Notes: generated by a model not told the origin, from the letters alone. 33,052 bases of DNA from Aduncisulcus paluster (GCA_024181965.1 BQXS01009981.1:1-33052), one strand, 5' to 3'. Positions 6,426 to 33,052 are shown, numbered from the stretch's first letter. Made by a program: numbers and translations.

Positions 6426-9400
6426 TCATGATAGATAATGTGATTTCCTGATCGATTTTTGCATTTCTGAATCACCAAAAATAGTTCCAGCCGATCCAAA
6501 ATGTTTCCATTTTTGTTCTTTGATAACATCATCAATAGATGGACATGCAAAATCTTCTCCAATCGTTGGAAGTAAAAATTTGATAGGTTGTACTATTTCG
6601 CGAGCATCATGCACACTCATGCGTTTCTTATGGTCATGCAAAGTGAGACCTGTGAACACTTCATTAAACACTTTATGAAGAGGTTCGTACTTACCATCAT
6701 CAATGGTCAATAGAGAGTCGAAGAGAGGGGATGAACTGGAAATATGAGGATACAAATTACTTTTCATGAGTTCAATTAGTTTGCCCATGAATTTCACAGG
6801 GTTGTCTATTCCTCTCATAACAGGCAGCTGAAGGAAAGGATCACAACACAAGAACAAAGCAAGGATTGACATTCCAAGAGAATAGCCATCACTAATTTGA
6901 CTCTGAATTCCATGTCGAAGAGTTTCATAGGAATTGTACACAAGAGTTCCACAAATGGAACGTTTGGACTCTGAGTTGGAGTGGGAAGAAGAAGACAAGA
7001 AAGAAGAAGAGGAAGAGAAAGAGGAAGAAGGTGTAACAAAACTCTTGGAAGACGTTGAAGATGAGACGGAATCCTGAATCTGCACGAAGCCAAGATCAGC
7101 GAGAACAACCGTACATTCTCCATTTTTTGGGTCAACACGAACAAGGAAGTTGTCAGGTTTCACATCTCGATGGACAAGCTTTGGTTTAGCCGTGAACACA
7201 TCATCAAGACATTCGATCATTCCAAGAGAATAGCCATCACTAATTTGACTCTGAATTCCATGTCGAAGAGTTTCATAGGAATTGTACACAAGAGTTCCAC
7301 AAATGGAACGTTTGGACTCTGAGTTGGAGTGGGAAGAAGAAGACAAGAAAGAAGAAGAGGAAGAGAAAGAGGAAGAAGGTGTAACAAAACTCTTGGAAGA
7401 CGTTGAAGATGAGACGGAATCCTGAATCTGCACGAAGCCAAGATCAGCGAGAACAACCGTACATTCTCCATTTTTTGGGTCAACACGAACAAGGAAGTTG
7501 TCAGGTTTCACATCTCGATGGACAAGCTTTGGTTTAGCCGTGAACACATCATCAAGACATTCGATCATTCCAACACATAATGAACACACTTTCACAGGGT
7601 TCAGTATCATGGGATCGAAGCGATCATGATCATCACTCTCAAAACCAGAACCAGAACTTGAGTCTAAGTCTGAGGGTTCACTATCATCAACAACACTCAC
7701 ATACTTGCCATCAGCACACCAACGCTTGGCAAACGCACTCACACTGCCTCCAACACAAAACTCCATCAGGAAGCCATAAACACCTTTCATATCGCAATCA
7801 AGGAGGTCAAGGATATACAGAGGACGTGGGATACGGTTAAAACATTTGGGATTCGTAAACAATTTGAGTTGCACTTTAAACTCCTTCCGACACCATTTCA
7901 CGACCTTTTCGTCAGCACTCTGAAGCATTTTCTTCAAAACGCATGGGAAAGGAATATCATCAACCTTAACAAGAAGAACCTCTCCGAACCCACCACTGCC
8001 AATGATGCACTGAGAAGTCAGCGTGGATGCAGATGTCAGGGTTAGCGAGTCGAACTTGGGTTTGTATTTGACATTATCATGATTGGATTTCTCTTTATCC
8101 TTCCATTTCTGTTTGTAGTCTTTTGGCACGGAATCTTTATCAATTTTGACTTCTTCTTTTACAAGAGGTTGTGGAATCAGAGGTTTGACATCTTTTCCAA
8201 CAGACAGTACCTTGAGGGAACTGGAAGAATCAGGAGCATGGAGATGGAAAGAGGTAGTAATATCATCATCTTGAATGAAAACAAGAGAGTTAATGTGGAA
8301 ACATCGACTATTCCCCTTTGACCATCCTCCGTACCATAATCCATTCCCTTCAATTTCACACAAAACAACATTCGGTAAATCAATAGGAAGGAAGTGCCAT
8401 TCATATATATATTTAGGTTTTATGAATTCATACTTCTTAAATGTCTTTTTACCATCAGAATTTGTGAAAGTGATGAGAAGAGAAGGTATCCATTCATCCT
8501 CACTCACATATGAATAAACACCTTTCATAGAACAAGGTGATGTGAAAGGGATGGAAAGATGGGATAAGTATACATCACCTTCCCCTTTTAACATTTTTTG
8601 TGCATCTAAACTCCGGTCATAATACTCAGATTCCCTACTATACGAAGCATCCTTGCACTTAACCATTGATAATGACGGAGCTACAAGCTTTGGATCGTCA
8701 CGTGAAATGGGAATAGAATCTCTACCTTCAGAATCTTCATTTCCTTTCTTAAAAAATTCTGATTTCACGACTAGAACTTCAGACCATAGCTTCTCTTTGG
8801 CTTCCCGAGATATAATTTCCTCAGGAGTTTCTTCTCTACCAATGAAAACAAGGGATTCAATCTTGATTATTGGACTCGGCTTCTGATCCCACCTTCCTTT
8901 CCCTTCAATCTCACATAATACAACATTATTCAAATCAATAGGGAGGAAATACCATTCATATTTATGTTTAGATTTTGGGAATTCATATTTCTTGAATATT
9001 TTTGAACCATTAAAATCAGTGAACGTGATTAGAATAGTGGGTGAACTCCAATCTTTATAAACACAAATATAAGCACCTTTAATTGGACTTGGCGATGGGA
9101 AAGGAATGGAAAAGTTGGAAAAAGAAACAAAACTTTCTCCTTTCAACATTTTTTGTGCGTTTAAACTTCGATCATACAAAGTAGATTCCTTACTATACCA
9201 ATTATCCTTACACTTCACCAATGAGAATGAAGGGTCTAAAACTCTTGAATCATCACGTGAAATAGGAATAAACTCTCTGCCTCCCTCCTTAACAAACTCT
9301 GTTTTCATAATTGGAGCTTCATACCATTGTTTTTCTTTGGTTTCGCGAGCTATGATTTCTTCAAGGGTTTCTTCCCGAAAGAAAACAAGGGAGAGAATTT

Positions 9401-10964
9401 GAAATTGTTCTTTTTTCCTGCCTTTTCCAGTAATTTCACACAAAACCACATCAGATAGATCAACAGGAAGGAAATACCAAAAATAACAACCACGACTAAA
9501 TACAGAAAATTCGAACCTTCTGGATATTTTCTCACCTTTTGAAGAGGTGAGAGTCAATATGAGATGTGATGGAGGTGAACCATGCTCAGAATAATCTCCT
9601 AAGGCAATATAAACCCCTTTCATTGGAGATGATGAAGGGAAAGGAATGTAGAGTTTTGTAAAAAATCCATAATTTCGTAAATTCTTAATATTTCTCCACT
9701 CACCATCCATCATTTCTCGTGCTTCATAACTTTGATCGTAACCGGGTTGTTTTAGAAACATTATTTTCTTGGTTTCATCCTTAGCTTTGATTGAGGCACA
9801 CTCTGGACTCTTAATATTGGGGGCATCTCGGGGAATTGGACAGCAACTAAAATCTCCTTGATGCAAAAACTCAGGTTTCACAACTAAAGGTGAAGATGAT
9901 GAAACTTTCTTGAAGGAACGAGGAAGAGAGGTGGGAATATCATCATCTCTGATGAAAACAAGGGTGTTCATATGGAAATCTCGACATTTTGAAATCCAAC
10001 TTTCTTTGCCTTCAATCTCACACAAAATTACGTCTGCCAAATCAATGGGGAGGAAATACCATTCATAGGTATAGCTCTTTCCGAGAATTGTGAATTCAAA
10101 CTTTTTGGATGTCTTCTTATCATTCGAATCTGTGAAAGTGAAGAAAAGAGAGGGTGAACAATACTTCTCTTTTACACAGATATAAGCACCTTTCATGGGA
10201 CTGGGAGATGGGAAAGGAATGGAAAGATGGGTTAAGTACACTTCACTTTCCCCTTCTAACATTTTCTGAGCTTCTGAACTCTTATCGTAATACTCAGAAT
10301 GCTTACTCACCGAATCATTTTTGCACTTAACGATTGAGAATGAAGGATCCAAAATTCTTGGATCATCCCGTGGAATGGGCATATGTTCTCTACCGCCTTC
10401 ATTACAAAACTCTGGTTTTACAACTGGGACTTCAGACCATAATTTCTCTCTGGCTTCACGAGCTATGATTTCTTCAGGAGTTTCGTCTCTACTTATGAAA
10501 ACAAGAGAGTCGATTTTAAAATATTCTTCCTCTCTTCCTTTCCCTATAATCTCACACAGAACAACATCGGGAAGATCAATAGGAAGGAAATACCAATCAA
10601 CATTTTCAAACTCGTGTTTTTTGGATATTTTATCTTTCTTTGAGGTTGTGAAAGTGAAGATAAGATGTGAAGGAGGGTCGTAAGAATTTATACAAATGTA
10701 GGCACCTTTAATTGGGGAGGATGAAGGGAAAGGAATACTGATGTCGGTAAATTTTGCACTATGCCACTCCCCTTTCATCATTTTTTGGGCTGAATCACTT
10801 TGGTCGTACCAATAACTACCTTCTTCTTCGCTTGCATTTCTTGCCCTGATAGTCCATTTTGGACTCTTAATATTGGGGGAATCTCTAGGAATTGGACAGA
10901 AATGACAATCTCCCCTTCGAATAAACTCTGGATTAACGATTTGAATAGCTGTGGATGAACTCAT
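6426..10964 (-). CDS. Ser/Thr protein kinase with five N-terminal tandem copies of an unnamed domain (A-B-A-B-B); no signal peptide or TM helix seen
   Basis: Kinase motifs IGSGGFGEV, VLKKM, alphaC Glu (KEFK), HRDVKPDN, DLG (for DFG), GTLVYNSYE (for APE), SDGYSLG. The N-terminal ~900 aa is made of five homologous units (PIPRD...IPFPSxSPMKGAYICV...KKYEF...WYFLPIDL..VVLCEI.GKG...SLVF). Confidence 0.92.
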   Translation of the reverse strand: MSSSTAIQIVNPEFIRRGDCHFCPIPRDSPNIKSPKWTIRARNASEEEGSYWYDQSDSAQKMMKGEWHSAKFTDISIPFPSSSPIKGAYICINSYDPPSHLIFTFTTSKKDKISKKHEFENVDWYFLPIDLPDVVLCEIIGKGREEEYFKIDSLVFISRDETPEEIIAREAREKLWSEVPVVKPEFCNEGGREHMPIPRDDPRILDPSFSIVKCKNDSVSKHSEYYDKSSEAQKMLEGESEVYLTHLSIPFPSPSPMKGAYICVKEKYCSPSLFFTFTDSNDKKTSKKFEFTILGKSYTYEWYFLPIDLADVILCEIEGKESWISKCRDFHMNTLVFIRDDDIPTSLPRSFKKVSSSSPLVVKPEFLHQGDFSCCPIPRDAPNIKSPECASIKAKDETKKIMFLKQPGYDQSYEAREMMDGEWRNIKNLRNYGFFTKLYIPFPSSSPMKGVYIALGDYSEHGSPPSHLILTLTSSKGEKISRRFEFSVFSRGCYFWYFLPVDLSDVVLCEITGKGRKKEQFQILSLVFFREETLEEIIARETKEKQWYEAPIMKTEFVKEGGREFIPISRDDSRVLDPSFSLVKCKDNWYSKESTLYDRSLNAQKMLKGESFVSFSNFSIPFPSPSPIKGAYICVYKDWSSPTILITFTDFNGSKIFKKYEFPKSKHKYEWYFLPIDLNNVVLCEIEGKGRWDQKPSPIIKIESLVFIGREETPEEIISREAKEKLWSEVLVVKSEFFKKGNEDSEGRDSIPISRDDPKLVAPSLSMVKCKDASYSRESEYYDRSLDAQKMLKGEGDVYLSHLSIPFTSPCSMKGVYSYVSEDEWIPSLLITFTNSDGKKTFKKYEFIKPKYIYEWHFLPIDLPNVVLCEIEGNGLWYGGWSKGNSRCFHINSLVFIQDDDITTSFHLHAPDSSSSLKVLSVGKDVKPLIPQPLVKEEVKIDKDSVPKDYKQKWKDKEKSNHDNVKYKPKFDSLTLTSASTLTSQCIIGSGGFGEVLLVKVDDIPFPCVLKKMLQSADEKVVKWCRKEFKVQLKLFTNPKCFNRIPRPLYILDLLDCDMKGVYGFLMEFCVGGSVSAFAKRWCADGKYVSVVDDSEPSDLDSSSGSGFESDDHDRFDPMILNPVKVCSLCVGMIECLDDVFTAKPKLVHRDVKPDNFLVRVDPKNGECTVVLADLGFVQIQDSVSSSTSSKSFVTPSSSFSSSSSFLSSSSHSNSESKRSICGTLVYNSYETLRHGIQSQISDGYSLGMIECLDDVFTAKPKLVHRDVKPDNFLVRVDPKNGECTVVLADLGFVQIQDSVSSSTSSKSFVTPSSSFSSSSSFLSSSSHSNSESKRSICGTLVYNSYETLRHGIQSQISDGYSLGMSILALFLCCDPFLQLPVMRGIDNPVKFMGKLIELMKSNLYPHISSSSPLFDSLLTIDDGKYEPLHKVFNEVFTGLTLHDHKKRMSVHDAREIVQPIKFLLPTIGEDFACPSIDDVIKEQKWKHFGSAGTIFGDSEMQKSIRKSHYLS
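6870..7573. repeat. Perfect 348-bp tandem duplication inside the kinase domain (116 aa, in frame)
   Basis: 6870-7217 matches 7218-7565 with no mismatch seen. CATTCCAA occurs at 6870, 7218 and 7566 (8-bp junction microhomology). Confidence 0.95.
8270..10950 (-). repeat. Array of five diverged ~500-600-bp domain-coding units
   Basis: Approximate units: A 10950-10490, B 10420-9945, A 9880-9375, B 9310-8835, B 8770-8270. Three of the four junctions use an EETxEEIIxRExxEKxW linker. Confidence 0.9.
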
Positions 10965-11743
10965 TGGTTAGGATATCTACGATCGATTTAGGTTTTTGTT
11001 GGCTTTGAAATATGGATAAAATATGATAAAAATAAATATAATGAATATATTAAAAGGATAAAAACATTCAAAAGAGAGCAGAAAGTTATGGTTAATAGAG
11101 ACAACGATCAACAACACAAATATTGAGTTAATTGAACATACAACAAGGAGTATTAGTGATATCTTGGATTGGTTGAACAGAAATTATTCAGTTGAATATA
11201 GTTTTGTCACCAGATAACACCTAAAAGAGGCCAAAAAAGCCAAAATTTAATAGACCCACTTTTTTGAACCATTTCGCTGAAATTCATGCATAAAAAAACA
11301 CCTTCAAATGATTTATAACCAATATAAATTATAAAGACATATTTTTCAATGAAATCCATATGCATTTTCCGGGTTAGAATAAGAATTGCTCCTTGAGGCA
11401 TGCTTTGGGTTTATTTGAGACATTTCCTAGATTGATTAAAGTTTATTGCTCTTTCATCAACTTCCTTCAAGGACTAAGAAGTTCTTATCGGGAATGATCT
11501 CTGAGATATTCGTCTGTAATTGGATCTCTCACAGAAATAAGATTATACAGATCTAGCAGAACATTTATTGAAACCAACGCCACCTCGAATCCTGCCAACT
11601 CCTTCCCACCAATGCACAAAACTACCGTTGGAAAAGAGAAAGAAAGTCACTCACACTTTTCAGTTGTTTTTTCTCAATCAAATCGCCAGAGTCCTGATAA
11701 TTCGAATCGTCTCTTGATGTAGCTAATTCAAATTGTTTAGAAC

Positions 11744-14700
11744 CTATTTCTTCCAAGTTTTGTATCGAAGAGGATGAAGAAGACGAGAATATTTCTCTGA
11801 GATAGTCTTTCCCTTTGAAAAAATGTTACTCGATTTGGAAGGGTCCAGGGCAGCCTTTTGGAGATTTCCAATGGCCAAATAAAGCTTTAAGCCCAGTTCA
11901 CCCTCTTTTCCAATGGGAGCCATTTTAACTTGACGTGCAAATCCAGATTCATCAACTTCAATTTCCAATATTCGGCGTATTTCCTCAAATGCAGGCGGTT
12001 TTTGCTTCAATAATACCTTATCGCACCGTTTTTTAACCATTTTAGTCGGAGCAAATACTTCAAATAAAGTGATTCCGAAAGCAAAGAAATCCTTATCAAT
12101 CAAACCAGATAATTCTGGAGGTGGAGAATATTTCTCAGAATAGACTCTATCTGGGGTTGGAATATCTTTAGTTACATCAGTAGGCATAGGTCTTCTCCGT
12201 GTGTCTGATCTTGATGCGTATTGTTGAGGCGTTGAGATGGTTTTTGTGCCCTCTGGTCTCTCTTGAGAATGGTCCAAGTCAGCAATAACGATGCAAAGAG
12301 CAGGGTCAGTTGGAGATTTGTCCATAGTACGTTCAGAACCATCAATTTTAACACGCAAAGTCGACTTTGTAACGAGAAAATTGGCAGGTTTTATGTCACC
12401 ATGATTTTTGGATGCTTTGTGGAGAACATAGCAACAATCCATTATTGCGAAACAAATCTGAACAAGCACATAACTCAAAGGAAATGAAATGTAGTATGGT
12501 TTCCGCCCAGGAGTGACAAGACGGTGATTATCATGCAAATACTTTATGAATCTAGTTAAATCTGAGTCACACAATTCCATTAATAGATAAATCGAGCGAT
12601 CTAATGATTCGTCTAAGCAATCCGAGATGAAAACGGCATAAATTCTAGGAACAACTCGAATTTTGGTGCTTGTTGTACCGCATGAATAATCTTGGATTTT
12701 TGAGCATGTTGTGCAATAATTCAAACACGTATGAAACCCTTTCTCAATTTCTTGATGCAAAAGTTGAACTTTCTCAATAAATCTATCATGATTTTGACTA
12801 CACCCTTTCAAGCTAGTAAGTAGCTCATCTCGGGCTCTTGAAGTAAATTCCTTCAAAGCATATGTGTTTGAACTCCCCCATATGGATTTTGGGGAGGAAG
12901 AGGAAGAAGAGGAAGAGGAAGCGGAAGAGGAAGCGGAGGAAGAAGAAGGGGAAGAGGAAGAGGAAGAAGGGGAAATACCATCAGTAAGATGGGAATAAAT
13001 ATCACATTTGCGGAATAGTTTAGGATCAGGCCTGTATATTATCGGGTTAAATTTCTTAGTCTTTGAAACTCCATATGGATTCCACCATTTCCACATGTTA
13101 ATGCGAAGTGAGGACCATTGTTTCGATGAATTGAATAATTTGGCCTTTTCAATCTTGATTTTGTATACTTTTCCAAATCCTCCGGAACCAATGCATCGTT
13201 CTGATGTTTTTGAACAGAAACATGGAAGCGTAGATTTAATTGATTTTGGCATGAAAATAATGGGGTTTGGTTGACGTGTCAATTCTTCTTCTTTTGGATA
13301 TCCTTTCGATATGATAGACGGGGATTTAGGGAGATCAAACCACGGAGAAGGAATATCAATGTGAAAACAATATGGTGAAAATGATGGAGACTCACAAGCT
13401 GATCTCTTTTTCTTTCTCATTAATGCTGTACTTGGCTTGATTGATGTAGAAAGTTGTGCAGAAAAAAAGACTTCACCGTCAGAAAGGTGGGGATGTAAAG
13501 GAGTGGTGTCAGTATGGTCAGATGAAGAGGTGGATAACAAGTTGTAAGATGAACAAGGGAGCTCGATTGATTCTTGGATTTTACGCTTCGGTTTCGAAGA
13601 AGAGAGAGAAGAGGAAGAAGAAGAGGAGGTGGAATCAAAAATGATAGAAGACGTGGAAGACGAAGATTTCAATGAAGATTTAGACTTTCTTGCCTTTAAA
13701 TTCTTTTTTCTCGTTTGGTCAATCAACTTTTTTTCTGCAAGAATCAATTCTTCCCCTTTCTTTTCCAGTTGGTCCAACATTGTGACAAGTAAATCACACA
13801 TTCCATGCAAATTATCGATGATATCTTTATGATCAGCAATGGATGATGGGGTTTTCTTGGACGGAGAATCCCATTTGACACATATAAGTCTATTAGGAAG
13901 CTTCTCCAAAAATGATCTGATATTTTCAAGCTCAGAAACAAACACAGATTCATAGATTGACAATGATTTAAATATCATGGATATTTGTGTCTTTTCTTGT
14001 TCGGTTTTTTCTCCCCGTTTCCTGCTTTTTTTGATCAAATCAAATCGATATGTGATATCATTGTGGATTACCTGAACAATGCCAATCAACATGGAGAGGG
14101 CTGACCCTAATTTGATGGAACTCCCACTGAAATAGGAGAGAGAAAAGGGTAATTTGCTTGGATTGGATGGTATATCAGTTTTTTTCTTCCTTTTCTCTTT
14201 CTTCTTTTTTGAGGAAGAAGTCGAAGAAGAAGAAATGGTTGAAGAACTATCAAAATAATGAGAAATAATGGCTGGAAACTGACATTTGTAGCCATAAATA
14301 TCTTTTAATAGACCTTTTAGGGTCAGTAAATCATTATAACTAAGAAAATCATGATCCATACTTTTCAGAGTGCAAGAAAATGTTGAAGTTGGTTTTGAAT
14401 ATTCCTTCAAAAGCACCAACTTTTTTAATATCATTTTAATATGTGAAATAAATGGGAATTTATAACTATAATCACCATTTTCCTTATTAGATATCTTAGA
14501 ATCGCATTTCTTCGATTTCTTTGATTTTGGCATAGTTGTGGATCCACCTTCACTACTATAATCTCCTGATTGTGACATTTCAGAGCTCTTCCAGGCATTT
14601 GATGGATGACTTTGACAATGATATCTATCATAATCATGTGAACAATCATCGTCCACCAATCGTGACGAGTCATCATCGCCATAATAAAGACGATCAAATC

Positions 14701-16615
14701 CTTTGGAGTGACAATCATAGATTTGTGCTCCAAATCCCTTTTCTAATTCTTCGCCGGGAGTATAATAATAATGATAATAATATCTGCAACTCATGGCCAA
14801 TAGAAAAGCATGAGTGAAATACAGAGTTCTTGAGCATACAATAGATTCGAGAGACATGAATAATTCCAGATTGGCCTTTGACGTTTCTAACAGAAGTTTA
14901 ACCAGAGCCGATGGAAAACGATATGAAATGGCTGGATCATAATAATATGGCAAATTAATCCCAAAAGATGACGGGATCATGCAGAACTCCGTTCTCTTGC
15001 TGGGTTTCAACTCAGATTTGGGTATTTTTTTGCTCTTTAAAGAACTCGTACCTGCAAGAACTCCTGCGTTAATCAACATTTGATGATCTTGGGATGGATC
15101 TATCAATTTAATCTCAATGGTCTTCATAGAGGAAGAAGGAGAGGAAGAAGGAGAGGAAGAGGAGATAAAAGAAGATGAAGACAAAGATGAGGACAAAGAA
15201 CTACAAGAAAAGGGAGAAGGAGATCTCGAAGACGAACTTTTCTTGCTATTTGAAGGAGATACATGGACATCAACGAGGCCATCGATAATATGCCAGTCAA
15301 ATGGGGGATAAAATACATCACGCGGTTTCCCACCAAATTCTTTTTTTAATTTGCTGAGCTTTGGATAGGATTGTAATAAAGGGCCAACAGAGCACATAAT
15401 CATATCTCCAAGGAATTCAAGAGTACAGACAATAGGATCTTTGGTATTAAAAATCTCATTGCTTGATTTCGAGGATATTGCAGGCAAAATGAAATTAATA
15501 AACAAAGATTCACACGTGGTAAAAAATGAGGGATCATCAAGAATCGATAATTCACTACGAAATGAATATAGAACTGAGTTTACAGCCAGAATAAGTGTAG
15601 GGTCTTTCTTTCCAGTGAAAATGGTGGGGCGAGTATTATTAAGGTATTTGAGAATTGGTGGTACATATCGAAAAATTGAACGGAATAAGGAATTGTCAAC
15701 AGATAACAATGAAATTAAAAATAGAAAGTTTGGAAATATTCTGAAACCGGATTTATCAGTGGTTGTTTTGCTCATTTTGTAACAATATTTCTCAATAAAT
15801 CGGCTGGCTGACTTTGCAGACAAGAGTTTCTCCCAAATTTCTAAATATCTTCCGAATCGGTGCACAAAGATACAGAGTATTCCAAAGAGCATATTCGCTA
15901 TTTCCATTGTTTGAGTTGAGCATAGATCTGATATTGATGAGAACAAAGAGATAATTCCATCCAAATATCCAGAATATACCCGCTGGTGGAAAGAGTATTC
16001 TGGAATATAGAATAATGAACGAATAATGATTTCAACTGAAATTTGAATGCGAGTTAAGGAAGTAGAGGGAAATTTATCTAAAAAATCATTAGAAATAGTC
16101 TCAGATACGAAAGAACCGAATACAATAGAGTCAATCCACAAATCAATTTGTTTGGGTTGCAAAATAGATTTTGGAAACTCATGAATCGATGTGAGTGAGG
16201 ACGAAACTTTAAAGGATTTATATTGTACTGGAAGGAAGCGAGAATAATGATTCCACAATATGGGATTTGAAGTCAACATTTCTATAAGAATAGATTGAGG
16301 AAGTGGGGTCTCCATTAATTTGGATTCAGAAAAAATAGTTGATAATAATTCCATCAAAATGAGTTTTATATTCTTTTCCGGTTTGCAATCATCACATGTG
16401 ACGATAATTGTTATGACAGCTAATAATTCATTAAAATTATTTTCAATAAATAATTTTATATTATCACTATCGAAAGTCTCAATTGAATCTGTTAATTTCG
16501 ATACTAAATCGGAGAAACACCAAGGAAGTGAGGAAGGAATGTAAGAGGAGAGGGAGGAAGAATGATTCGTAGTAAATTTCAATATTTCAATTAAATCTTC
16601 TTTAATTCGATCCAT
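11744..16615 (-). CDS. Large protein with a C-terminal divergent (non-RD) protein kinase domain
   Basis: 1623-aa ORF with IGSGGFGKVYK (~13190), YALKEF (~12860), LLMELCDSDL, HGDIKPANFLV (~12400), IADLD and DFFAFGITLFE. The N-terminal ~1100 aa is helical and Ser-rich with no family I recognise. Confidence 0.88.
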   Translation of the reverse strand: MDRIKEDLIEILKFTTNHSSSLSSYIPSSLPWCFSDLVSKLTDSIETFDSDNIKLFIENNFNELLAVITIIVTCDDCKPEKNIKLILMELLSTIFSESKLMETPLPQSILIEMLTSNPILWNHYSRFLPVQYKSFKVSSSLTSIHEFPKSILQPKQIDLWIDSIVFGSFVSETISNDFLDKFPSTSLTRIQISVEIIIRSLFYIPEYSFHQRVYSGYLDGIISLFSSISDLCSTQTMEIANMLFGILCIFVHRFGRYLEIWEKLLSAKSASRFIEKYCYKMSKTTTDKSGFRIFPNFLFLISLLSVDNSLFRSIFRYVPPILKYLNNTRPTIFTGKKDPTLILAVNSVLYSFRSELSILDDPSFFTTCESLFINFILPAISSKSSNEIFNTKDPIVCTLEFLGDMIMCSVGPLLQSYPKLSKLKKEFGGKPRDVFYPPFDWHIIDGLVDVHVSPSNSKKSSSSRSPSPFSCSSLSSSLSSSSFISSSSPSSSPSSSMKTIEIKLIDPSQDHQMLINAGVLAGTSSLKSKKIPKSELKPSKRTEFCMIPSSFGINLPYYYDPAISYRFPSALVKLLLETSKANLELFMSLESIVCSRTLYFTHAFLLAMSCRYYYHYYYTPGEELEKGFGAQIYDCHSKGFDRLYYGDDDSSRLVDDDCSHDYDRYHCQSHPSNAWKSSEMSQSGDYSSEGGSTTMPKSKKSKKCDSKISNKENGDYSYKFPFISHIKMILKKLVLLKEYSKPTSTFSCTLKSMDHDFLSYNDLLTLKGLLKDIYGYKCQFPAIISHYFDSSSTISSSSTSSSKKKKEKRKKKTDIPSNPSKLPFSLSYFSGSSIKLGSALSMLIGIVQVIHNDITYRFDLIKKSRKRGEKTEQEKTQISMIFKSLSIYESVFVSELENIRSFLEKLPNRLICVKWDSPSKKTPSSIADHKDIIDNLHGMCDLLVTMLDQLEKKGEELILAEKKLIDQTRKKNLKARKSKSSLKSSSSTSSIIFDSTSSSSSSSLSSSKPKRKIQESIELPCSSYNLLSTSSSDHTDTTPLHPHLSDGEVFFSAQLSTSIKPSTALMRKKKRSACESPSFSPYCFHIDIPSPWFDLPKSPSIISKGYPKEEELTRQPNPIIFMPKSIKSTLPCFCSKTSERCIGSGGFGKVYKIKIEKAKLFNSSKQWSSLRINMWKWWNPYGVSKTKKFNPIIYRPDPKLFRKCDIYSHLTDGISPSSSSSSPSSSSASSSASSSSSSSSSPKSIWGSSNTYALKEFTSRARDELLTSLKGCSQNHDRFIEKVQLLHQEIEKGFHTCLNYCTTCSKIQDYSCGTTSTKIRVVPRIYAVFISDCLDESLDRSIYLLMELCDSDLTRFIKYLHDNHRLVTPGRKPYYISFPLSYVLVQICFAIMDCCYVLHKASKNHGDIKPANFLVTKSTLRVKIDGSERTMDKSPTDPALCIVIADLDHSQERPEGTKTISTPQQYASRSDTRRRPMPTDVTKDIPTPDRVYSEKYSPPPELSGLIDKDFFAFGITLFEVFAPTKMVKKRCDKVLLKQKPPAFEEIRRILEIEVDESGFARQVKMAPIGKEGELGLKLYLAIGNLQKAALDPSKSSNIFSKGKTISEKYSRLLHPLRYKTWKK

Positions 16616-19768: not shown

Positions 19769-19794
19769 AAGATTAACTGATTTCTCGAGAAGAT

Positions 19795-22173: not shown

Positions 22174-24702
22174 TTACTCACTCAAAATAGTAGTACCGGG
22201 CAAAGAATGTTTTAATTTCCCATGAAGGGTAGAAGAAAATAAATTAAGATTTAAATATATTTTTTTAATGCCATGTATCTTGTGTTTCCTGCATAATTCA
22301 ATGAAATTAGAGTACCCCTCTTCAGATATAAAATTCTGCTCAAGTCTAAGTTGCTTGAGGGATGAAAGCTTTGGTAAGATATCTGATGCTAACTCAGTGC
22401 ACCCTTCATCACCAAGATCATTGTATGATATTGATAATGTTTCGAGTGAGTCGGAGTTACTCAATAAAACAACTTTAAGTTCTTGGATTCCTTTTACCGT
22501 CAATTGGTTATAATTTAGATTCAAGACTCTTATTTTCTTTGACAATCCACAGGAAGAATGGAACGGATCTGCAAGGAATTTGCAAGATATATCATCAATT
22601 CGGTTTCTCGAAAGNNNNNNNNNNNNNNNNNNNNTAAGTTGCTTGAGGGATGAAAGCTTTGGTAAGATATCTGATGCTAACTCAGTGCACCCTTCATCAC
22701 CAAGATCATTGTATGATATTGATAATGTTTCGAGTGAGTCGGAGTTACTCAATAAAACAACTTTAAGTTCTTGGATTCCTTTTACCGTCAATTGGTTATA
22801 ATTTAGATTCAAGACTCTTATTTTCTTTGACAATCCACAGGAAGAATGGAACGGATCTGCAAGGAATTTGCAAGATATATCATCAATTCGGTTTCTCGAA
22901 AGATTGAGAATTTCTAAATTTGGATACACGGCAAAAAGAGAACACTTTGCCGATTCGATTCTAATTTTGTTTTTGGACAAGTCAAGATATTTCAACGCAG
23001 TGAATAACTTTGTTTCTTGATCGGAATAAGATGTGGGATTGAGAATAGCATCGGATGAAATCAGATTGTCGGATAAATCCAAATGGTGAAGACGATACAT
23101 GGATGGAAGGCAACATCTTACAAATGGAATAATTCCAACATCATCGATTTCATTCATGGATAGATTCAAATGCTCCATCCTTAGTAATGGAGCCATGAAA
23201 GAAGTGAGATAATGCATTCCTTTGCTCGAGATAGAGTTGTCTGCAATCGAGAAGGATGTCAAAGCACGAAGAGGATGGTGAGAAAGTAACAAAGAAGCGG
23301 TTTCAGTACGTGAAATACTCACGCTGCTGCCAGAAGCTGTCGATCTCGCAGATAAAGATGAGGGTGAAGCTCCACTTTTTCGGGATATATCTTTTATAGA
23401 TATTGGAATACCATCGGTACCTTGTTCAACATACATCATTGCATATGGAAATAAATTAAGACAACCTTCATCTTGAATGTAATTCTCATTAAGTTCTAGT
23501 GTTTGGAGGTTCGTACACCCCTCGAGTAGACAACTCAGATATGAACATGTCCTGGGGTCAAGCATGGTTCTATTTAGCAAGATAGAGTGGGCATTCATGC
23601 CCTGGAAACCTTCTTTTATGTTGATTTTCGGAGATATTTCTTCTTGCTCGAATATTGGAGTTCCAGACAGATTAATGGTTNNNNNNNNNNNNNNNNNNNN
23701 TGTCGATCTCGCAGATAAAGATGAGGGTGAAGCTCCACTTTTTCGGGATATATCTTTTATAGATATTGGAATACCATCGGTACCTTGTTCAACATACATC
23801 ATTGCATATGGAAATAAATTAAGACAACCTTCATCTTGAATGTAATTCTCATTAAGTTCTAGTGTTTGGAGGTTCGTACACCCCTCGAGTAGACAACTCA
23901 GATATGAACATGTCCTGGGGTCAAGCATGGTTCTATTTAGCAAGATAGAGTGGGCATTCATGCCCTGGAAACCTTCTTTTATGTTGATTTTCGGAGATAT
24001 TTCTTCTTGCTCGAATATTGGAGTTCCAGACAGATTAATGGTTTGAACGTGTTTTAACTTGCATAATACACTAAATAATTGAAAGAATCCTCCTTTTTCC
24101 TCGCCCGAAGAAGCGGAACTCAACTGAACATTATTACTTAGATCGATATGTTCAAGGCTATAGAAATGATCAAGACAAATAGATGAAAAGACCTCCCATC
24201 CTTTGAAAGTAATACTGCAATAGCTTAACGAGAACTTTTTAATGTTTTTGACATGGGATAAATGATAACAAATAAGTGTAAAGCCTTCAGAACCCATCTC
24301 AGGATTCATGCTCAGATCTAACTCTTCGATTGAATAAAGATCACCAAACGATGGGGCAATTATTCGACATATGGACGGTAAAAGGTTCATATTTTTCATT
24401 TCTAATCGTTTGATTCCATGATTATTATGTAATAATTTTGCAACGACATGAGCAGCACGTTCATCTAATTCATTTCCAGAAATACAAAGAGTTTCGAGGT
24501 TTTCAAATTGATTGAGGTGAAACTCAAACTTTGCCCAGAGGTATGGAGTTACAAACAAATTTTCAAGAGAAAGAACAGTCTGCGTCTCATCTTCAATAAT
24601 ATGAATTATCCTATCGAAATCAATGTCAATATCCTCTAAATCAACATCGATTTCTTTTGACAGGTCAGTAGATCGCCCCATACTACTTTGGAAATAAGAC
24701 AT
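22174..24702 (-). CDS. RNI-like leucine-rich-repeat protein; about 625 aa once two assembly duplications are collapsed, and may have extra 5' exons
   Basis: Repeated LxxLxLSxNxIxDxG motifs (LQTLELNENYIQDEGC, LETLSISYNDLGDEGC). The track start at 24708 is TTG; the first ATG is at 24702. Contains two N gaps. Confidence 0.88.
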   Translation of the reverse strand: MSYFQSSMGRSTDLSKEIDVDLEDIDIDFDRIIHIIEDETQTVLSLENLFVTPYLWAKFEFHLNQFENLETLCISGNELDERAAHVVAKLLHNNHGIKRLEMKNMNLLPSICRIIAPSFGDLYSIEELDLSMNPEMGSEGFTLICYHLSHVKNIKKFSLSYCSITFKGWEVFSSICLDHFYSLEHIDLSNNVQLSSASSGEEKGGFFQLFSVLCKLKHVQTINLSGTPIFEQEEISPKINIKEGFQGMNAHSILLNRTMLDPRTCSYLSCLLEGCTNLQTLELNENYIQDEGCLNLFPYAMMYVEQGTDGIPISIKDISRKSGASPSSLSARSTXXXXXXXTINLSGTPIFEQEEISPKINIKEGFQGMNAHSILLNRTMLDPRTCSYLSCLLEGCTNLQTLELNENYIQDEGCLNLFPYAMMYVEQGTDGIPISIKDISRKSGASPSSLSARSTASGSSVSISRTETASLLLSHHPLRALTSFSIADNSISSKGMHYLTSFMAPLLRMEHLNLSMNEIDDVGIIPFVRCCLPSMYRLHHLDLSDNLISSDAILNPTSYSDQETKLFTALKYLDLSKNKIRIESAKCSLFAVYPNLEILNLSRNRIDDISCKFLADPFHSSCGLSKKIRVLNLNYNQLTVKGIQELKVVLLSNSDSLETLSISYNDLGDEGCTELASDILPKLSSLKQLXXXXXXXLSRNRIDDISCKFLADPFHSSCGLSKKIRVLNLNYNQLTVKGIQELKVVLLSNSDSLETLSISYNDLGDEGCTELASDILPKLSSLKQLRLEQNFISEEGYSNFIELCRKHKIHGIKKIYLNLNLFSSTLHGKLKHSLPGTTILSE
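22347..22902. repeat. 268-bp identical duplication flanking a 20-N gap (scaffolding artefact)
   Basis: 22347-22614 equals 22635-22902; Ns at 22615-22634. Confidence 0.9.
23338..24043. repeat. 343-bp identical duplication flanking a 20-N gap (scaffolding artefact)
   Basis: 23338-23680 equals 23701-24043; Ns at 23681-23700. Confidence 0.9.
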
Positions 24703-26936: not shown

Positions 26937-27031
26937 TATAAGAAAAACTTTGCTTTCCTTCTCTTGACTCTTGACTCTTCATCTTCATCTTCCTCTTTCT
27001 TTTCAATTACAAGGAAGGAGCATCAGCCTCT

Positions 27032-29202
27032 CTACGTCATATCTTGCAAACAATATACTGTTCCATCTTCATTTCTACTCTTGTCGTCAAAAGCCTTGAC
27101 ATCACATGCACACTCAGAGAAATTGACACTGACAACAGTGCATCCATCATCAGGCATGTAATAGATAGATTCATCAGCGAATGTACACACAAAATAGAAA
27201 CCAAGGGGCATTCTTGTGAGGTAATTAAAGCCCCGTTCCTGTTGCATGAATGTTGTAGTGAACATTTCATCCAAAAAGGCCACACTTAGGGTATACGCAA
27301 GCATTTCCCACTCAGTAAGGGTTACACCAGCACATAAAACCTCAGGATCTCGAACAAGAACAGAATCAGTGTTAAAATTATCAGTGTTAGTATCAGAATC
27401 TACAAGCTGTTGTTGGTTGGGTTCGATGCATGATGATATCTTCTTTGCAGTAACAGATTCAACAGTTTGGAGGAAATTGATGTATGCATGGTCACTCCAC
27501 ATGATTCCAAGGGTAGCTAGGTCAATTGTGAGTCCAACCGATGCCACAGAATCGCCAGAATCGACTTGGTATAAGCTTAATACAATTTCCATATCATCAT
27601 AAGCGAGATCCATACCATCAAGTCTGGTAGAAATATCAGGAACGACCGGAACACCATCAATAGTCTGGAAAGTGAAGCCAATGTCAATGTAACAGTTTGA
27701 ACAGAGGGAATAAAGGTCAGGAATAATGGTCATCCAGAAATGAGAAGTAAAAATAGGTGATAAATCGGAAGGAGGGTTGTCAATATCAATGCCTAAGTTG
27801 TTCCGAATAAGATACTGGGAACTGTAACCTCCAGAATAATTGCCATCAGAGTCAAAGCATCCATCACGAGTGCTAATGCACGCGACATTAGTAAATGTTC
27901 CTTTTAAATCAGACCAAGACGCATTTGAATTGTGAAGACTATTGTAGAAAATGCTATGGACGGAAGAATCAGAAATAGTGAAAGACAACTCAGAACTGAA
28001 CATGTCATATGGTAATGAAGAAGGTGGATTGTAAGTAGGATCAACAGAGTCCTCACGAATCTTATCATTGGCAGTTTTACCGAAACAACCGACAGCAAAA
28101 GTCGGGAGAGTGAAATACGAGGGTCCCACATAAGCAGCTTGGGCAAATCCAAGATTAAAGACGTTGTACGTGTCAAAGTGATATGAAGAATTCAACCCCA
28201 AAACGTCATGAATGCCCTGAGAGGAGATATACTCGGCGATGGCATTACTCAAGGTAGAAGAAAGAAAAGGAATAAGAGACGATTGGAGGACATCTTTAAT
28301 CATTTCCAGAATTGGATTAACATCTCCAATGAAGTCAATATGGATGTCATCAAGCTCAAGTTTCAACGTATCTATATTAATGTCGGGTAGATAACCACAG
28401 GCTTCTTTACCGCATGAGACGTCTGAATAATCTGGAGATATACCAATAGAAGCTGAAGCAAATGCACCAAGCTCTCCAACTGTCAATCTGGCAGCTCCCA
28501 CAAGAGAAGAATACGGATAGGTCAGAAGCTTGATATTATAATCAACACTGGCAACAATATTGGCCCCTGAGGCATTCATATTGATTTGATTTGGAGGAAG
28601 ATTTGAAACTAAAACGTCTTCATCAGGAANNNNNNNNNNNNNNNNNNNNCATCAAGCTCAAGTTTCAACGTATCTATATTAATGTCGGGTAGATAACCAC
28701 AGGCTTCTTTACCGCATGAGACGTCTGAATAATCTGGAGATATACCAATAGAAGCTGAAGCAAATGCACCAAGCTCTCCAACTGTCAATCTGGCAGCTCC
28801 CACAAGAGAAGAATACGGATAGGTCAGAAGCTTGATATTATAATCAACACTGGCAACAATATTGGCCCCTGAGGCATTCATATTGATTTGATTTGGAGGA
28901 AGATTTGAAACTAAAACGTCTTCATCAGGAAAAAAAGCAAAGGATTCAACCGTAAAATCTGTAAGAGAGATGCTTGCTTTACCGACACCGAAATCCACAT
29001 TTGTAGAGAAATCAGGAATTTGTAGCGAATTCATTAAAGCATCAAAATATGGTTGAAGATCTTTAAAAATAATATCATACATTGCGTCAATTGAAAAAGT
29101 TACCATAAGGCCAGTTTGACCGCCATAATTCCCATCATCGCCTGCAAAGAAAGAACAAAAAACAAAAGAAACAAAAGAAATTAAAAAAATCGATAATATC
29201 AT
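27032..29202 (-). CDS. Secreted BPI/LBP/CETP-like (TULIP) lipid-binding protein; a single ~622-aa gene split by an assembly artefact
   Basis: Signal-peptide-like MILSIFLISFVSFVFC followed by a BPI N-terminal pattern (GLMVTFSIDAMYD...SLQIPDFS...GKASISLTDFTVESF...IHIDFIGDVNPILEMIKDVLQ). Removing the 302-nt duplication plus gap joins ORFs 28609-29202 and 27032-28579 in frame (1869 nt). Confidence 0.78.
28348..28931. repeat. 282-bp identical duplication flanking a 20-N gap (artefact causing an apparent frameshift)
   Basis: 28348-28629 equals 28650-28931; Ns at 28630-28649. The 302-nt offset is not a multiple of 3. Confidence 0.9.
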
Positions 29203-29680
29203 TTCTGGTTTCCCAGAAAGGCAGTAGTTCGTTATTCCGAAACGATGAGGATCAAATAAAATATATCTAAGAGTTATAAAGTACTACTAATAACAATATA
29301 AATCCATTTTCAAATTTTATTTATCGATATTACAATTTTCTGCCCCGGAATCGAATGGCTATGATTTGCCGGTGGCATTGATATCTTTAGTAGATAATAA
29401 ACAGCATTAAATATACAAATAATCCATAACAATCACAAATATAGCAGATACAATCATCTTTATGATGCAAGAAAAAAAAAATCGTTCTCGAAACCGGCTG
29501 TAAATCATGTGATTCACAACAGTAAAAGCAACTCTATCACATGTCTGTATCTTATTCAACAACTCTAAAATCTCTAATCAACATGGGCATCTCATTATGA
29601 CGTGATTCATCTCAGACATCTGTCAAACGATTATTTCTGAGAAGACTGACTTCTTTACAGACAATAGCATTATCCTTGGG

Positions 29681-30814
29681 TTATTTCCATGGAAGTAGAG
29701 ATAATCGTTCAGCTTCAATAATTTCCTCGGGCATAGTAAATACAAGGGAGAGGATTTCGAAATATCGACTTTTCTTCTCCCTCCACATTCCTTTCCCTTC
29801 AATTTCACACAATACAACATTACACAAATCAATAGGAAGGAAATACCATTCAAATATATGTTCAGGTTCTGTGAATTCATACTTCTTGAATGTCTTCTTA
29901 CCATCACAATCAGTGAAAGTGAAGAGAAGAGAGGATGAACTATTATACCCATCCACACAGATATAAGCACCTTTCATTGGACTAGGTGATGCGAAAGGGA
30001 TGGAAAGATGGGATAATTGTAAATAACATTCCCCTTTTAACATTTTTTGTGCTTCTGAACTCTTATCATAGTCCTCAGATTCCTTACTAAATCTAGCATT
30101 CTTGCACTTAACCATTGAGAATGAAGGATCTACAAGATGTGGATCATCACGTGGAATGGGAATAGATTCTCTACCTTGAGATTCTCCATATCCTTCCTTA
30201 ACAAACACAGATTTTACAACAGGAGTTTCAGCCCAGAGTTTCTCTTTGGCTACACGAGCTTTGACTTCTTCATGAGTTTCTTCTCTAATGAAAAAAAGTG
30301 AAACGATTTTAAAACACTCTTCCTTTCTCCCTTTCCCTGTAATCTCACACAAAACAACATCAGAGAGAGCAACAGGCAAAAAGAACCAAAAAAAATCTTC
30401 AAAGTCTGGAAAATCATATTTTTTGGATATTTTTTCACTTTTTGATGAAATAAAAGTGAAGATAAGATGGGATGGAGGGGAATCAGAAAGATGAAAGAAC
30501 TTAAGATGGATATAAACACCTTGAATGGGGCAAGAATGAGAAAAAGGAACATGTATGTGAGTAAAAGATCCATCTGGATTCTCTCCTTGCAGCATATCTC
30601 GTGCATCAGAACTCTGGTTGTATCCGCGGGCACCTTTCCTGATACAAATATTCGTTGCTTCAATCTTTGGAAAGACTGGGGTCGTAATATTGGAAGAATC
30701 CCGAGGAATTGGGTTACAGTACCAAGGATTTTTGTTGGTTATTACAGGTTCCACGCTTTGAACAATGATATTACGACATTCTTCAAGAAACTCGGAGGTT
30801 TTCAATGAACACAT
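29681..30814 (-). CDS. Standalone two-domain (A-B) family member (copy 2), 377 aa
   Basis: Homologous along its length to 18573-19679 and ends ERLSLLPWK. The track start at 30826 is GTG; the first ATG is at 30814. Confidence 0.9.
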   Translation of the reverse strand: MCSLKTSEFLEECRNIIVQSVEPVITNKNPWYCNPIPRDSSNITTPVFPKIEATNICIRKGARGYNQSSDARDMLQGENPDGSFTHIHVPFSHSCPIQGVYIHLKFFHLSDSPPSHLIFTFISSKSEKISKKYDFPDFEDFFWFFLPVALSDVVLCEITGKGRKEECFKIVSLFFIREETHEEVKARVAKEKLWAETPVVKSVFVKEGYGESQGRESIPIPRDDPHLVDPSFSMVKCKNARFSKESEDYDKSSEAQKMLKGECYLQLSHLSIPFASPSPMKGAYICVDGYNSSSSLLFTFTDCDGKKTFKKYEFTEPEHIFEWYFLPIDLCNVVLCEIEGKGMWREKKSRYFEILSLVFTMPEEIIEAERLSLLPWK

Positions 30815-30979
30815 TTTCTTTTGCACTGAGATAAAATTAATTCAGATGATACGGTATTACGAAGCTTTTAGAGAGAATATTATTGATATTGTAAGACAGA
30901 AATGCGGGGTGATAATACAAAATAGAAATTATTAGAATGTAATGTGGAATATTAGAATGAAAAAGATTAATTATGTTAA

Positions 30980-31615
30980 CTAATTCAAAAGGTGTTTACC
31001 ATACTTTGAAATAGAAATGTCAACTATGCTCATCGGCAGCAAGAAAGGATCTATTTCATCCCAAGTCGTATGATATGTATTGAGTGATACAATATTATTG
31101 AAAAGTGTGGAATATTTATAAATATCTGTATTCCAAAATCTAATGAACACTGTGCTGGAGATATAACCGTTATAGTGTGACTTCAAGTCAGGCTTCTTTT
31201 ATCCTTTAAAAGAGTCCAATTGTCTGTCTCTTCTGGAGTAGATAATATGGTATAAATACTATATTTCATGACTCATGGCCATTGGGTCGTTCTCATGTAA
31301 ATCACAAGCTCCAAAGAATTGCTGTGATTCGAAGATCGTTTTTGTTGCAATAGAGATTTTGGAAATCTGTGAATGGTTCCATTTCATCTTTTCATGGCGG
31401 AATTATTATGATCTGTGACTCTTTGGCCGTGTCAATATTGTATTTTCCTTGATATTTGTTTTGGATTTCAAATCCGAGTGACTTGTCCAAGAAAATGTCC
31501 TAGAGTCTGGAGATTCTGAAGTCTGGGTCACGTTGGTTGTTCAATCAATTTTATCAACATAACGATTCATGATGCTTCTTTATGGCTTCGGTTCAACTCT
31601 CTCTGACGAATGATT
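30980..31615 (-). pseudogene. Possible decayed gene remnant of unknown family
   Basis: One frame reads as ~210 protein-like codons with about 6 scattered stops, ending in the 68-aa ORF 30980-31186. It is cut off where the MFS duplicate begins. Confidence 0.3.
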
Positions 31616-31617
31616 TG

Positions 31618-32132
31618 TTGGACTGAATTTTCTTTCCTCAAACTCCTTGGAATCATCTTTTTGCAAAAATATACACTCCAACCCATCTAAACTCACGAAT
31701 TTATTCCATTTATGTTTCCTTCTTATTGGAGTGAGTTATAGTACCATTCCAGCTGTTTGTACAAACGCAATTGATAGGGTAATGACCAACCGATCACTGT
31801 CCAATGTCTGTTTTGGGGTTCAAGTTGCCATGACAAATCTCTGTCTGGCTACTATTCCAATGATTGGTGGTGCTATCGCTAAGAAATGGAATTATGGGGT
31901 GGCAATGCTGTCGTTTGGGTTTATTCTTTCACTTGCAATTATTTTATCAATTATCTTATGTTTGAATCAGCAATGGAGAGTGATTTTGTTCGAAAGTGAT
32001 CATGCAAGAGCTGTCAGACTGGATAATGTCAAGGTATCACCACAGATAGAGGAGGATGACACCGAAGTTGGCGGACAGATATCTGATTGTGATGATTCTC
32101 ATAGCAATCATTCGAGGAAAGAATTGCAATAA
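31618..32132 (+). pseudogene. 5'-truncated inverted duplicate of the 3' end of the MFS transporter gene
   Basis: Reverse complement of 19795-20309 with one substitution (32070, Ser>Gly). It starts mid-gene and has no ATG at its start (the track start is TTG). Confidence 0.9.
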
Positions 32133-32321
32133 ATCTTCTCGAGAAATCGGTTAATCTTTCATTATGATCGGCATCTATCATCTTGGTAAATCATGGGATT
32201 CATATCACTGATATCATATCAGACATCTGTCAAACGATTATTTCTGAGAAGACTGACAGACGCAAGGGAATAAAAGTACAATGTCCTTCTTTGTAGATGA
32301 TATCATTATCCTTGGAGAGGA

Positions 32322-33052
32322 TTATTTCCATGGAAGTAGAGATAATCGTTCAATTATTTCACTTTCTTCGGGGATTGTAAATATAAGGGAGTAGACTCGA
32401 CAATTCTTATCATACCACGTTCCTTTCCCTTCAATCTCACACAATACAACATTATCCAAATCAATAGGAAGGAAGTGCCATTCATATTTATGTTTTTGTC
32501 TTGTGAATTCATACTTCTTGTATGTCTTCTTACCATCACAATCTGTGAAAGTGAAGAAGAGACAAGGTGAACTACAATACTTGTCCACACAGATATAAGC
32601 ACCTTTCATTGGACTAGGTGATGGGAAAGGGATGGAAAGATAGGATAAGCTAACATCACTTTCCCCTTTTAACATTCTTTTAGCTCCTGAACTCTGATCA
32701 TACTCCTTAGATTCCTTACTAAATCTAGCATTCTTGCACTTAACCATTGAGAATGAAGGATCTACAATCTTTGGATCATCACGTGGAATGGGAATAGAAG
32801 CTCCATATTCATTAATAAACTCTGGTTTTACAACTGGAGCTTTAGACCATAGTTTCTCTTTGGCTTCACGAGCTTTGACTTCTTCATGAGTTTCTTCTCT
32901 AATGAAAAGAAGGGATTCGATTTCAAAAGACTCTCCCTCTCTTCCTCTCCCTGTAATCTCACACAGAACAACATCAGGGAGATCAACAGGAAGGAAATAC
33001 CAATGTTCACCTTCAAATTCAGGAAACTCATATTTCTTGGATGTTTTCTCAC
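32322..33052 (-). CDS. Family member (copy 3), 5' end beyond the window edge
   Basis: The frame is open from 33050 (EKTSKKYEFPEFEGEHWYFLPVDLPD...) to the stop after ERLSLLPWK. The ORF track shows only the part from an internal Met. Confidence 0.88.
   Translation of the reverse strand, partial: EKTSKKYEFPEFEGEHWYFLPVDLPDVVLCEITGRGREGESFEIESLLFIREETHEEVKAREAKEKLWSKAPVVKPEFINEYGASIPIPRDDPKIVDPSFSMVKCKNARFSKESKEYDQSSGAKRMLKGESDVSLSYLSIPFPSPSPMKGAYICVDKYCSSPCLFFTFTDCDGKKTYKKYEFTRQKHKYEWHFLPIDLDNVVLCEIEGKGTWYDKNCRVYSLIFTIPEESEIIERLSLLPWK

Follow-up and report, generated by a model that had tools for sequence, protein, structure and literature searches.

The 33,052 nucleotides analysed here (GCA_024181965.1, BQXS01009981.1:1-33052; the window in the following, always at its full length) belong to Aduncisulcus paluster (Fornicata), a free-living protist and little-studied relative of Giardia, the genome of which is available as a fragmented short-read draft of 29.4 Mb with an N50 of 4.6 kb and 15,316 predicted proteins (PMC9933649). 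Interspersed with ordinary genes (MFS, LRR, SUKH), the window contains a large protein kinase gene and three standalone genes that carry copies of one and the same domain of approximately 165 amino acids, subsequently called the unit. A six-frame scan with a hidden Markov model (HMM) built from the units recovers exactly 10 full units and one partial unit, the only two other matches being chance hits with negative scores. Separate HMMs for two subtypes, A and B, give the order A-B-A-B-B followed by the kinase in the large protein and A-B in each of the three standalone genes, which is the arrangement of 11 copies that an initial annotation, made by a model from the sequence alone, had already read from the window; the conserved framework motifs and all variable loop strings quoted there are equally found in the translations. 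All 11 units sit in long open reading frames (ORFs) and are 36-78% identical to one another.

The kinase gene (6426-10964, minus strand; delimited by ORF, Pfam and HMM) encodes 1512 amino acids comprising five units, an 80-residue linker and a divergent protein kinase; a comparison with P0133 indicates that the NCBI model ADUPG1_006557 (1501 amino acids) differs from this ORF at the N-terminus alone. In the order of the protein and all on the minus strand, the units are located at 10479-10949 (unit 1, subtype A, HMM 225 bits, alignment A1), 9936-10424 (unit 2, B, 257 bits), 9366-9884 (unit 3, A, with longer loops, 213 bits), 8826-9311 (unit 4, B, 254 bits) and 8259-8771 (unit 5, B, with the longest third loop, 240 bits). 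The kinase domain (6606-8012, minus strand; residues ~985-1453) matches PF00069 with 68.4 bits against a cut-off of 31.7 in two stretches, residues 985-1188 and 1262-1453, and its translation contains the glycine loop, the VLKK lysine, HRDVKPDN and DLG, with a Ser-rich insert within the activation segment. Judged from these motifs, the kinase looks catalytically competent. The kinase is not assignable to a group: a phmmer search of the PDB gave one match (E 9.2e-5) and a profile of 10 paralogous kinases matched STK38, CDPK1, RIPK1, CK1 and Aurora at E 1e-7 to 1e-4 (best 1.4e-7), a spread from which no group follows. The domain also contains an exact in-frame tandem repeat at 6870-7573 on the minus strand (repeat family D5, 100% identity), in which a segment of 348 nt or 116 codons reaching from the catalytic loop to subdomain IX is present twice, with an exact run of 356 nt at an offset of 348 and no N gap; the NCBI model retains it. 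It may have arisen by a very recent duplication but is more probably an artefact of short-read assembly, and a real duplication would disrupt the kinase fold.

Among the standalone genes, the one at 18573-19679 (plus strand) encodes 368 amino acids with units at 18594-19085 (A) and 19146-19640 (B) and ends with the C-terminal tail LSLLPWK. A 381-codon ORF at 29681-30826 (minus strand; NCBI model ADUPG1_006563, 371 amino acids) holds units at 30272-30766 (A) and 29720-30214 (B), and the gene at 32322-33050 (minus strand), detected by HMM and cut by the window edge, holds a partial A unit (32886-33050) and a B unit (32361-32834). A Kyte-Doolittle hydropathy scan with a 19-residue mean detected neither a signal-peptide-like N-terminus nor a transmembrane-like segment in the kinase protein or the A-B proteins, with a maximal mean of 1.73 versus 2.76 in the neighbouring MFS transporter. 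By this simple scan alone, a cytosolic location of the unit proteins, and with it the earlier description of the kinase as cytoplasmic, is plausible.

Beyond the window, the family was counted in protein databases, with the window DNA serving as the source for codon analysis. The profile HMM collected 852 units across 321 proteins, the largest array amounting to 15 units in a single protein, so that with about 320 collected proteins versus 15,316 the family makes up ~2% of the predicted genes. A kinase region is present in 98 of the 321 proteins; the units are N-terminal to the kinase in 96 of these 98, and the unit adjacent to the kinase is nearly always of subtype B. Most often, the architecture is AB (108 proteins) or, in second place, AB plus a kinase (35 proteins). 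The coexistence of kinase-fused and standalone forms, first noticed in the window, is thus general across the family. Other fusion partners (thioredoxin, MSP, nitroreductase, LRR, ABC transporter and AAA ATPase) occur in single or few gene models.

The species range is narrow. HMMER retrieved from 1.84 billion cluster representatives 171 matches at E<=1e-3 and 136 at E<=1e-10. Relatives of the 368-residue A-B protein number 165 in the range of 202-644 amino acids, with A. paluster as the source of all 119 named among the 120 listed, and 87 in the range of 645-2000 amino acids, all 87 from A. paluster; the unit profile adds 46 small relatives or fragments at E<=0.1, of which 45 are named and all 45 come from the same species. 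Individual look-ups of 20 matches, among them 10 from the weak end of the list, gave A. paluster in 20 of 20 cases, and among the named or looked-up matches of those listed, the best 150 of the 171 representatives, no relative outside this species was found. The family is transcribed, as five members (P0233, P0297, P0246, P0251, P0281) stem from a protein set that was derived from a transcriptome of the same strain. A sequencing run, X1, was considered as expression evidence and set aside as uninformative, its nature as RNA being a guess only and its contigs covering 30 of 30 bins including intergenic ones. At window positions 6300-20000 (13.7 kb), this run shows 1307 contigs at >=95% identity, of which 357 fit two places, with pile-ups on the unit-coding parts; this suggests that the raw data hold many more near-identical family copies than the assembly.

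The unit is a member of a known fold class that is not recognizable by sequence. An AlphaFold2 model of the 368-residue A-B protein, calculated with an alignment of 69 two-unit paralogs, has a predicted local distance difference test score (pLDDT) of 92.5 and a predicted template modelling score (pTM) of 0.85 and consists of two beta-sandwiches (residues ~9-166 and 194-351), a joining helix (172-187) and a C-terminal helix. The top Foldseek match is the tandem CBM32 of ZmpB (7jnd, E 1.1e-8, probability 1.00), with DDR1 (4ag4_A, E 1.2e-6), allantoicase, neuropilin b1b2 and factor V among the further matches, likewise at a probability of 1.00. VIA-align against 48,161 chains, in which the superposition spans model residues 26-169 and 213-355, gives Z scores of 9.5-11.7 at a root-mean-square deviation (rmsd) of 2.3-3.4 Å over 117-133 residues: 4jx0_B scores 11.7, CBM32 7d2a 11.5, IFT25 2yc2_A 11.2 (2.6 Å, 117 residues), APC10 5a31_L 10.9, the HECTD3 DOC domain 9r6v_B 10.9, muskelin 10.6, and PITHD1 and the HERC2 DOC domain 10.3, and the CUL7 DOC domain, PITH domains and XRCC1-N are also matched. 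On the predicted structure, membership of the units in the galactose-binding-domain-like fold class can be regarded as established, AlphaFold2, Foldseek and VIA-align agreeing with the initial guess of a galactose-binding, discoidin or DOC-like sandwich, and since the VIA-align scores are tied within ~2 Z, a single parent family is not nameable within the class.

Sequence comparison, in turn, bears out the earlier statement that the domain has no named family. For 10 of 10 window units, Pfam at E<=10 returns three unrelated chance families only and no galactose-binding-domain-like family, the F5_F8_type_C and ANAPC10 profiles included; for whole unit-bearing proteins, it returns the kinase and otherwise 0 families at E<=0.1. 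A PDB sequence-profile search with the unit alignment gives a single chance match (E 0.73), and the best ESM Atlas score, 0.81, is under the meaningful level of 0.9, as is a weak lead at 0.79 to a cluster that is 87% CBM32. In F5/8 type C domains, a disulfide ties the N- and C-terminal ends together; no conserved terminal cysteine pair is present among the 10 units, the sole invariant cysteine being that of the LCEI strand. Two database-derived leads were discarded. The UniRef label 'NudC domain-containing' on P0004, P0010, P0093 and P0144, proteins of three to four of the described units each, would have pointed to a CS/NudC link; with 0 domains found by Pfam in 4 of 4, the name was probably assigned automatically and in error, from a different class of beta-sandwich. 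Equally, an origin from PITH/TXNL1, considered on account of the thioredoxin fusions, was rejected: the thioredoxin is C-terminal to the units, a standalone 106-residue thioredoxin shares the same 90% cluster, and genuine fusion and merging of gene models are equally likely.

Variability statistics were calculated from 548 near-full units out of the 321 proteins. The initial annotation had described three hypervariable loops, and all three (profile positions 85-89, 113-118 and 141-147) are entropy maxima of the sandwich part; the number is an undercount, as further variable segments are found at positions 59-63, 35-46 and 10-14, and indel hot spots follow positions 10, 60, 84 and 143. Across the A and B subtypes, segments 35-46, 59-63, 85-89, 113-118 and 141-147 have mean entropies of 2.0-3.2 bits, compared with 0.6-1.3 bits for the turns 99-103 and 126-129 and 1.0 bit for the framework. 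Loop lengths range from a minimum of 0-2 to a maximum of 21-24 residues, and the combination of four loops is distinct in 545 of 548 units. Relative to the core, the loops are enriched in Asn (4.4-fold), Trp (3.2-fold), Arg (2.7-fold), Glu (2.07-fold) and Tyr (2.05-fold), and they are modelled by AlphaFold2 at a pLDDT of ~88-96.

The spatial arrangement of these segments can be approached from the strand order, which according to the DSSP string is c, d, L1, e, turn, f, L2, g, turn, h, L3, i. Mean-field direct coupling analysis (DCA) of the 548 units yields the antiparallel registries d/e (84-90, 79-93, 77-97), e/f (96-106), c/f (69-105, 70-102, 72-107), d/g (79-122, 77-121), e/h (91-139, 93-135) and g/h (123-139, 124-135), together with couplings between variable segments (86-117, 88-142, 45-88, 44-115). 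Because every connection reverses direction, the loops L1-L3 and the segment that precedes strand c would be gathered at one sandwich end and the tight turns 99-103 and 126-129 at the opposite end, and since the conservation of these turns equals that of the framework, in contrast to the 2.0-3.2 bits of the apex segments, the variation is polarised to one end. Taken together, strand order, DCA registries and entropy contrast indicate that four to five variable segments probably share one end of the modelled sandwich. Discoidin and CBM32 domains bind their ligands by loops at one sandwich end, to which the variable end of the unit, a putative ligand-binding apex, would correspond.

The codon analysis (Nei-Gojobori; five independent pairs pooled from 10 window units) gives a ratio of nonsynonymous to synonymous substitution (dN/dS) of 1.15 for the four sandwich loops (bootstrap 0.57-2.2) and 0.37 for the remainder. 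Synonymous divergence is equal, 0.57 in the loops and 0.56 in the remainder, and the loops are consequently not misaligned and, on average, no older. Purifying selection acts on the framework, and the excess of the loops over 1 is not significant. Loop dN exceeds the unit-wide dS by factors of 3.6 and 1.7 in the two youngest pairs, whereas older pairs show ratios of 0.5-1.15; positive selection on the loops is suggested by the codon comparison for the youngest pairs only.

An inverted segmental duplicate lies beside the A-B gene cut by the window edge: the 3' end of an MFS transporter gene at 19797-20313 is 99.8% identical to 31614-32130, and the ORF at 31647-32132 (plus strand), with a weak MFS_1 match, is the duplicated MFS fragment. 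The A-B coding sequences next to this flank are ~62-98% identical per 60-nt bin, a mismatch between flank and coding sequence that suggests ectopic exchange among paralogs or an assembly chimera.

The three standalone genes furthermore have in common a near-invariant 3' element of ~120 nt, composed of the last nine codons (27 nt before the stop codon) and ~90 nt past the stop codon. It is located at 19651-19770 (plus strand; alignment A3), 29590-29709 (minus strand) and, with two insertions of 29 and 40 nt, 32157-32350 (minus strand), the copies having been found by alignment and by an exact 39-mer that occurs three times versus 0 expected; the coding sequences of the three genes are just 82-86% identical. 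The element is not present after the kinase gene, and the upstream flanks of the standalone genes are unrelated. On the protein level, the tail motif LSLLPW(K/R) ends 59 of the 223 kinase-free family proteins and none of the 98 kinase proteins. Rfam has no match to the element at E<=1, and RNAalifold on two copies predicts 27 pairs with no covariation, as the copies are nearly identical. The element could be a shared regulatory element of the 3' untranslated region or a gene-conversion tract, and it can be likened to the conserved 3' ends of the variant surface protein genes of Giardia.

Among the remaining features of the window, three 20-N gaps (22615, 23681, 28630) each lie between direct repeats of 268-300 nt with 100% identity (22347-22902, 23338-24000 and 28348-28931), scaffold-join artefacts that duplicate parts of the LRR protein ORF and split the gene at 27032-29202; exact duplicates at gaps are typical of scaffolding artefacts, and so is the exact tandem repeat within the kinase gene. 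The gene at 17395-17910 (minus strand) encodes a SUKH-1 (SMI1/KNR4) domain (E 2e-21), and contigs of run X1 on this gene, with many differing letters and high summed depth, suggest further near-copies elsewhere. The gene at 11744-16615 (minus strand), adjoining the unit-bearing kinase gene, encodes 1623 amino acids with long Ser-rich tracts, without units and with a kinase match of 27.2 bits, under the cut-off of 31.7, and is a member of a different divergent kinase-like family. The ORF at 21-6302 (plus strand; 2093 amino acids) has long poly-Ser and Glu/Lys-rich tracts and no Pfam match.

Several known systems resemble the A. paluster family in part. CBM32 and F5/8 type C domains have the fold in common (VIA-align Z 10-11.5, rmsd 2.6-3.3 Å, 120-131 residues), whereas the A. 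paluster units lack a sequence-profile match, a signal peptide and the conserved terminal cysteine pair and add an N-terminal extension of ~25 residues, helix-joined A-B pairs and hundreds of copies in a single genome. APC10/DOC domains (APC10, HECTD3, HERC2, CUL7), IFT25, muskelin and PITH domains are cytosolic protein-protein modules that share the fold (Z 10.0-11.4; for APC10/DOC the likeness is structural only, Z 10.2-11.4). These are single-copy, conserved and housekeeping, whereas the A. paluster family is confined to one lineage, hypervariable at one end and without sequence match to them. The discoidin domain receptors DDR1/2 and receptor kinases with lectin ectodomains place a discoidin-fold domain N-terminal to a kinase, as do the A. 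paluster proteins; the DDRs are, however, transmembrane tyrosine kinases with one extracellular discoidin domain, while the A. paluster proteins are without transmembrane segment or signal peptide in the hydropathy scan and join 1-15 tandem units to a divergent kinase of Ser/Thr type. A functional analogy only is offered by the B30.2/PRY-SPRY domain of TRIM proteins, an intracellular beta-sandwich in which variable loops on one face set specificity, coupled to an enzymatic effector and subject to lineage-specific expansion; its fold is a different one, the effector is a RING E3 ligase and not a kinase, and positive selection is documented. The discoidins of Dictyostelium, a bacterivorous protist, are abundant cytosolic proteins with a discoidin domain and without signal peptide, a location that is plausible for the A. 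paluster proteins as well, but they amount to four lectins with a second, H-type lectin domain, with no kinase fusion, no large expansion and, unlike the A. paluster units, no reported hypervariability (PMC5758549).

The genome announcement (PMC9933649) contains no mention of the unit family, nor do the listings and abstracts among the literature search results. The fold is already known; in the texts consulted, no description was found of the family itself, of its size and present restriction to a single species in the databases, of the hypervariable end or of the cytosolic architecture of unit arrays plus kinase.

The reading with the best support, held with a probability of about 0.6, is that of a lineage-private repertoire of cytosolic galactose-binding-like modules in which the variable apex sets specificity; in one third of the proteins, the modules would direct a kinase to its target or gate it, and the A-B-only proteins would act as kinase-less binders. 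Each unit of ~165 residues would be a highly diverged, lineage-restricted member of the fold class built into rigid A-B pairs, the variable sandwich end would constitute the ligand-binding apex and the family would thereby comprise at least 850 cytosolic modules of differing specificity. In about a third of the proteins, the 1-15 units that precede a divergent kinase of Ser/Thr type would recruit it to a ligand or substrate or gate its activity, and proteins consisting of A-B only might be adaptors, competitors or effectors themselves. Ligand binding at the variable end and control of the kinase by this binding are the steps that we infer. A hallmark of diversified immune-type receptor repertoires, lineage-specific expansion with a hypervariable putative recognition surface, is present.

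A number of observations weigh against this reading. A regular-expression census of the 98 kinase-bearing proteins finds HRDxKxxN in 65 and a DFG-like triad in 41, and many partner kinases may accordingly be pseudokinases, fragments or sequences too diverged for such patterns. Many gene models are partial, and the fusions to ABC transporter, thioredoxin, nitroreductase and AAA domains may be merged neighbours. The dN/dS estimate comes from 10 units, those with DNA; in 22-32% of the bootstrap replicates the loop value is <=1, not significantly above 1, and it fits relaxed constraint or neutral loops equally with a mixture of diversifying and purifying selection. Strict loop-to-loop pairs amount to two among the top 60 DCA couplings versus ~1 by chance, so that DCA provides clean strand registries and is weak by itself on the proximity of the loops. 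The five transcriptome-derived members, finally, are only 25-61% identical to the window copies, and the question of transcription raised by the initial annotation is thereby answered positively for the family and not for the copies of the window.

As a special case of the repertoire of variable binders, the apex might have been diversified by selection and ectopic recombination to detect foreign molecules in the cytosol, such as those of bacterial prey, symbionts, viruses or damaged vacuoles, with the kinases as signalling output and the A-B proteins as decoys or adaptors. The large lineage-restricted expansion and the near-unique loop set of each unit, rich in Trp, Tyr, Asn and Arg, would be in line with such an immune-like or prey-recognition function, as would the 3.6-fold and 1.7-fold excess of loop dN over whole-unit dS in the two youngest independent pairs and the divergence of A-B coding sequences (~62-98% identity) next to a 99.8% identical flank, which suggests exchange with other paralogs. 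A galectin-like role in cell-autonomous defence has been proposed for the cytosolic discoidins of Dictyostelium (PMC5758549). Yet the pooled loop dN/dS of 1.15 is not significantly above 1, with older pairs below 1, the mismatch between flank and coding sequence may be an assembly chimera in a short-read assembly with an N50 of 4.6 kb, and there is no consistent fusion to TIR, death or NACHT domains, one apparent NACHT/STAND match falling into the ATPase region of an ABC transporter. Such a function is rather unlikely, though it deserves some weight. More doubtful is the farther-reaching proposal that A. paluster possesses its own cytosolic variable-receptor system of ~300 genes and 850 domains, independent of NLR, TRIM and lectin-kinase systems, with selection and ectopic recombination acting at the apex, kinases as outputs and A-B genes co-regulated via the 3' element.

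A loop dN/dS near 1 is, on the other hand, what neutral drift would produce, and the arrays might instead be scaffolds or spacers within an expanded kinase and pseudokinase family that decorates the elaborate cytoskeleton of fornicates, with loops under relaxed constraint. Giardia provides a comparison with its expanded NEK kinases and ankyrin-repeat proteins. The absence of a recognizable HRD motif in 33 and of DFG in 57 of the 98 kinase partners, the kinase that is not assignable to a signalling group (best PDB profile match E 1.4e-7) and structural neighbours such as IFT25 and APC10, both permanent components of large assemblies, would suit such an addressing role. A purely structural role is nevertheless disfavoured and judged improbable because of the polarised variability (0.6-1.3 bits in the opposite turns and 1.0 in the framework versus 2.0-3.2 bits at the apex) and the composition of the loops, which are biased to Trp, Tyr, Asn and Arg and not to residues of low-complexity or disordered segments; their confident modelling (pLDDT ~88-96) and the preservation of all catalytic motifs in the window kinase equally speak against it. 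Inflation of the family by assembly duplication, a selfish element or decaying pseudogenes would be suggested by the exact duplications beside all three 20-N gaps and inside the kinase, by a chromodomain/integrase-type Pfam match on one fused model (P0177) and by the many family entries that are partial models on sub-kb contigs. With identities of 36-78%, the window units are, however, not assembly copies of each other; they are interspersed with ordinary genes (MFS, LRR, SUKH), and the long open frames of 11 of 11 units, the purifying selection on the framework (omega 0.37) and the members in an independent transcriptome-derived set largely exclude an artefact or junk amplification, which is considered very improbable.

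The A. paluster family joins a classic extracellular fold of lectins and adhesion proteins to cytosolic kinases, with the variability of the domain concentrated in one of its ends. Should the apex bind ligands, the family would represent a natural library of ~850 binders on one scaffold and an independent case of the building of a large recognition repertoire in eukaryotes. Should it bind none, the family would still be a striking example of kinases that expanded in concert with a targeting domain of their own.

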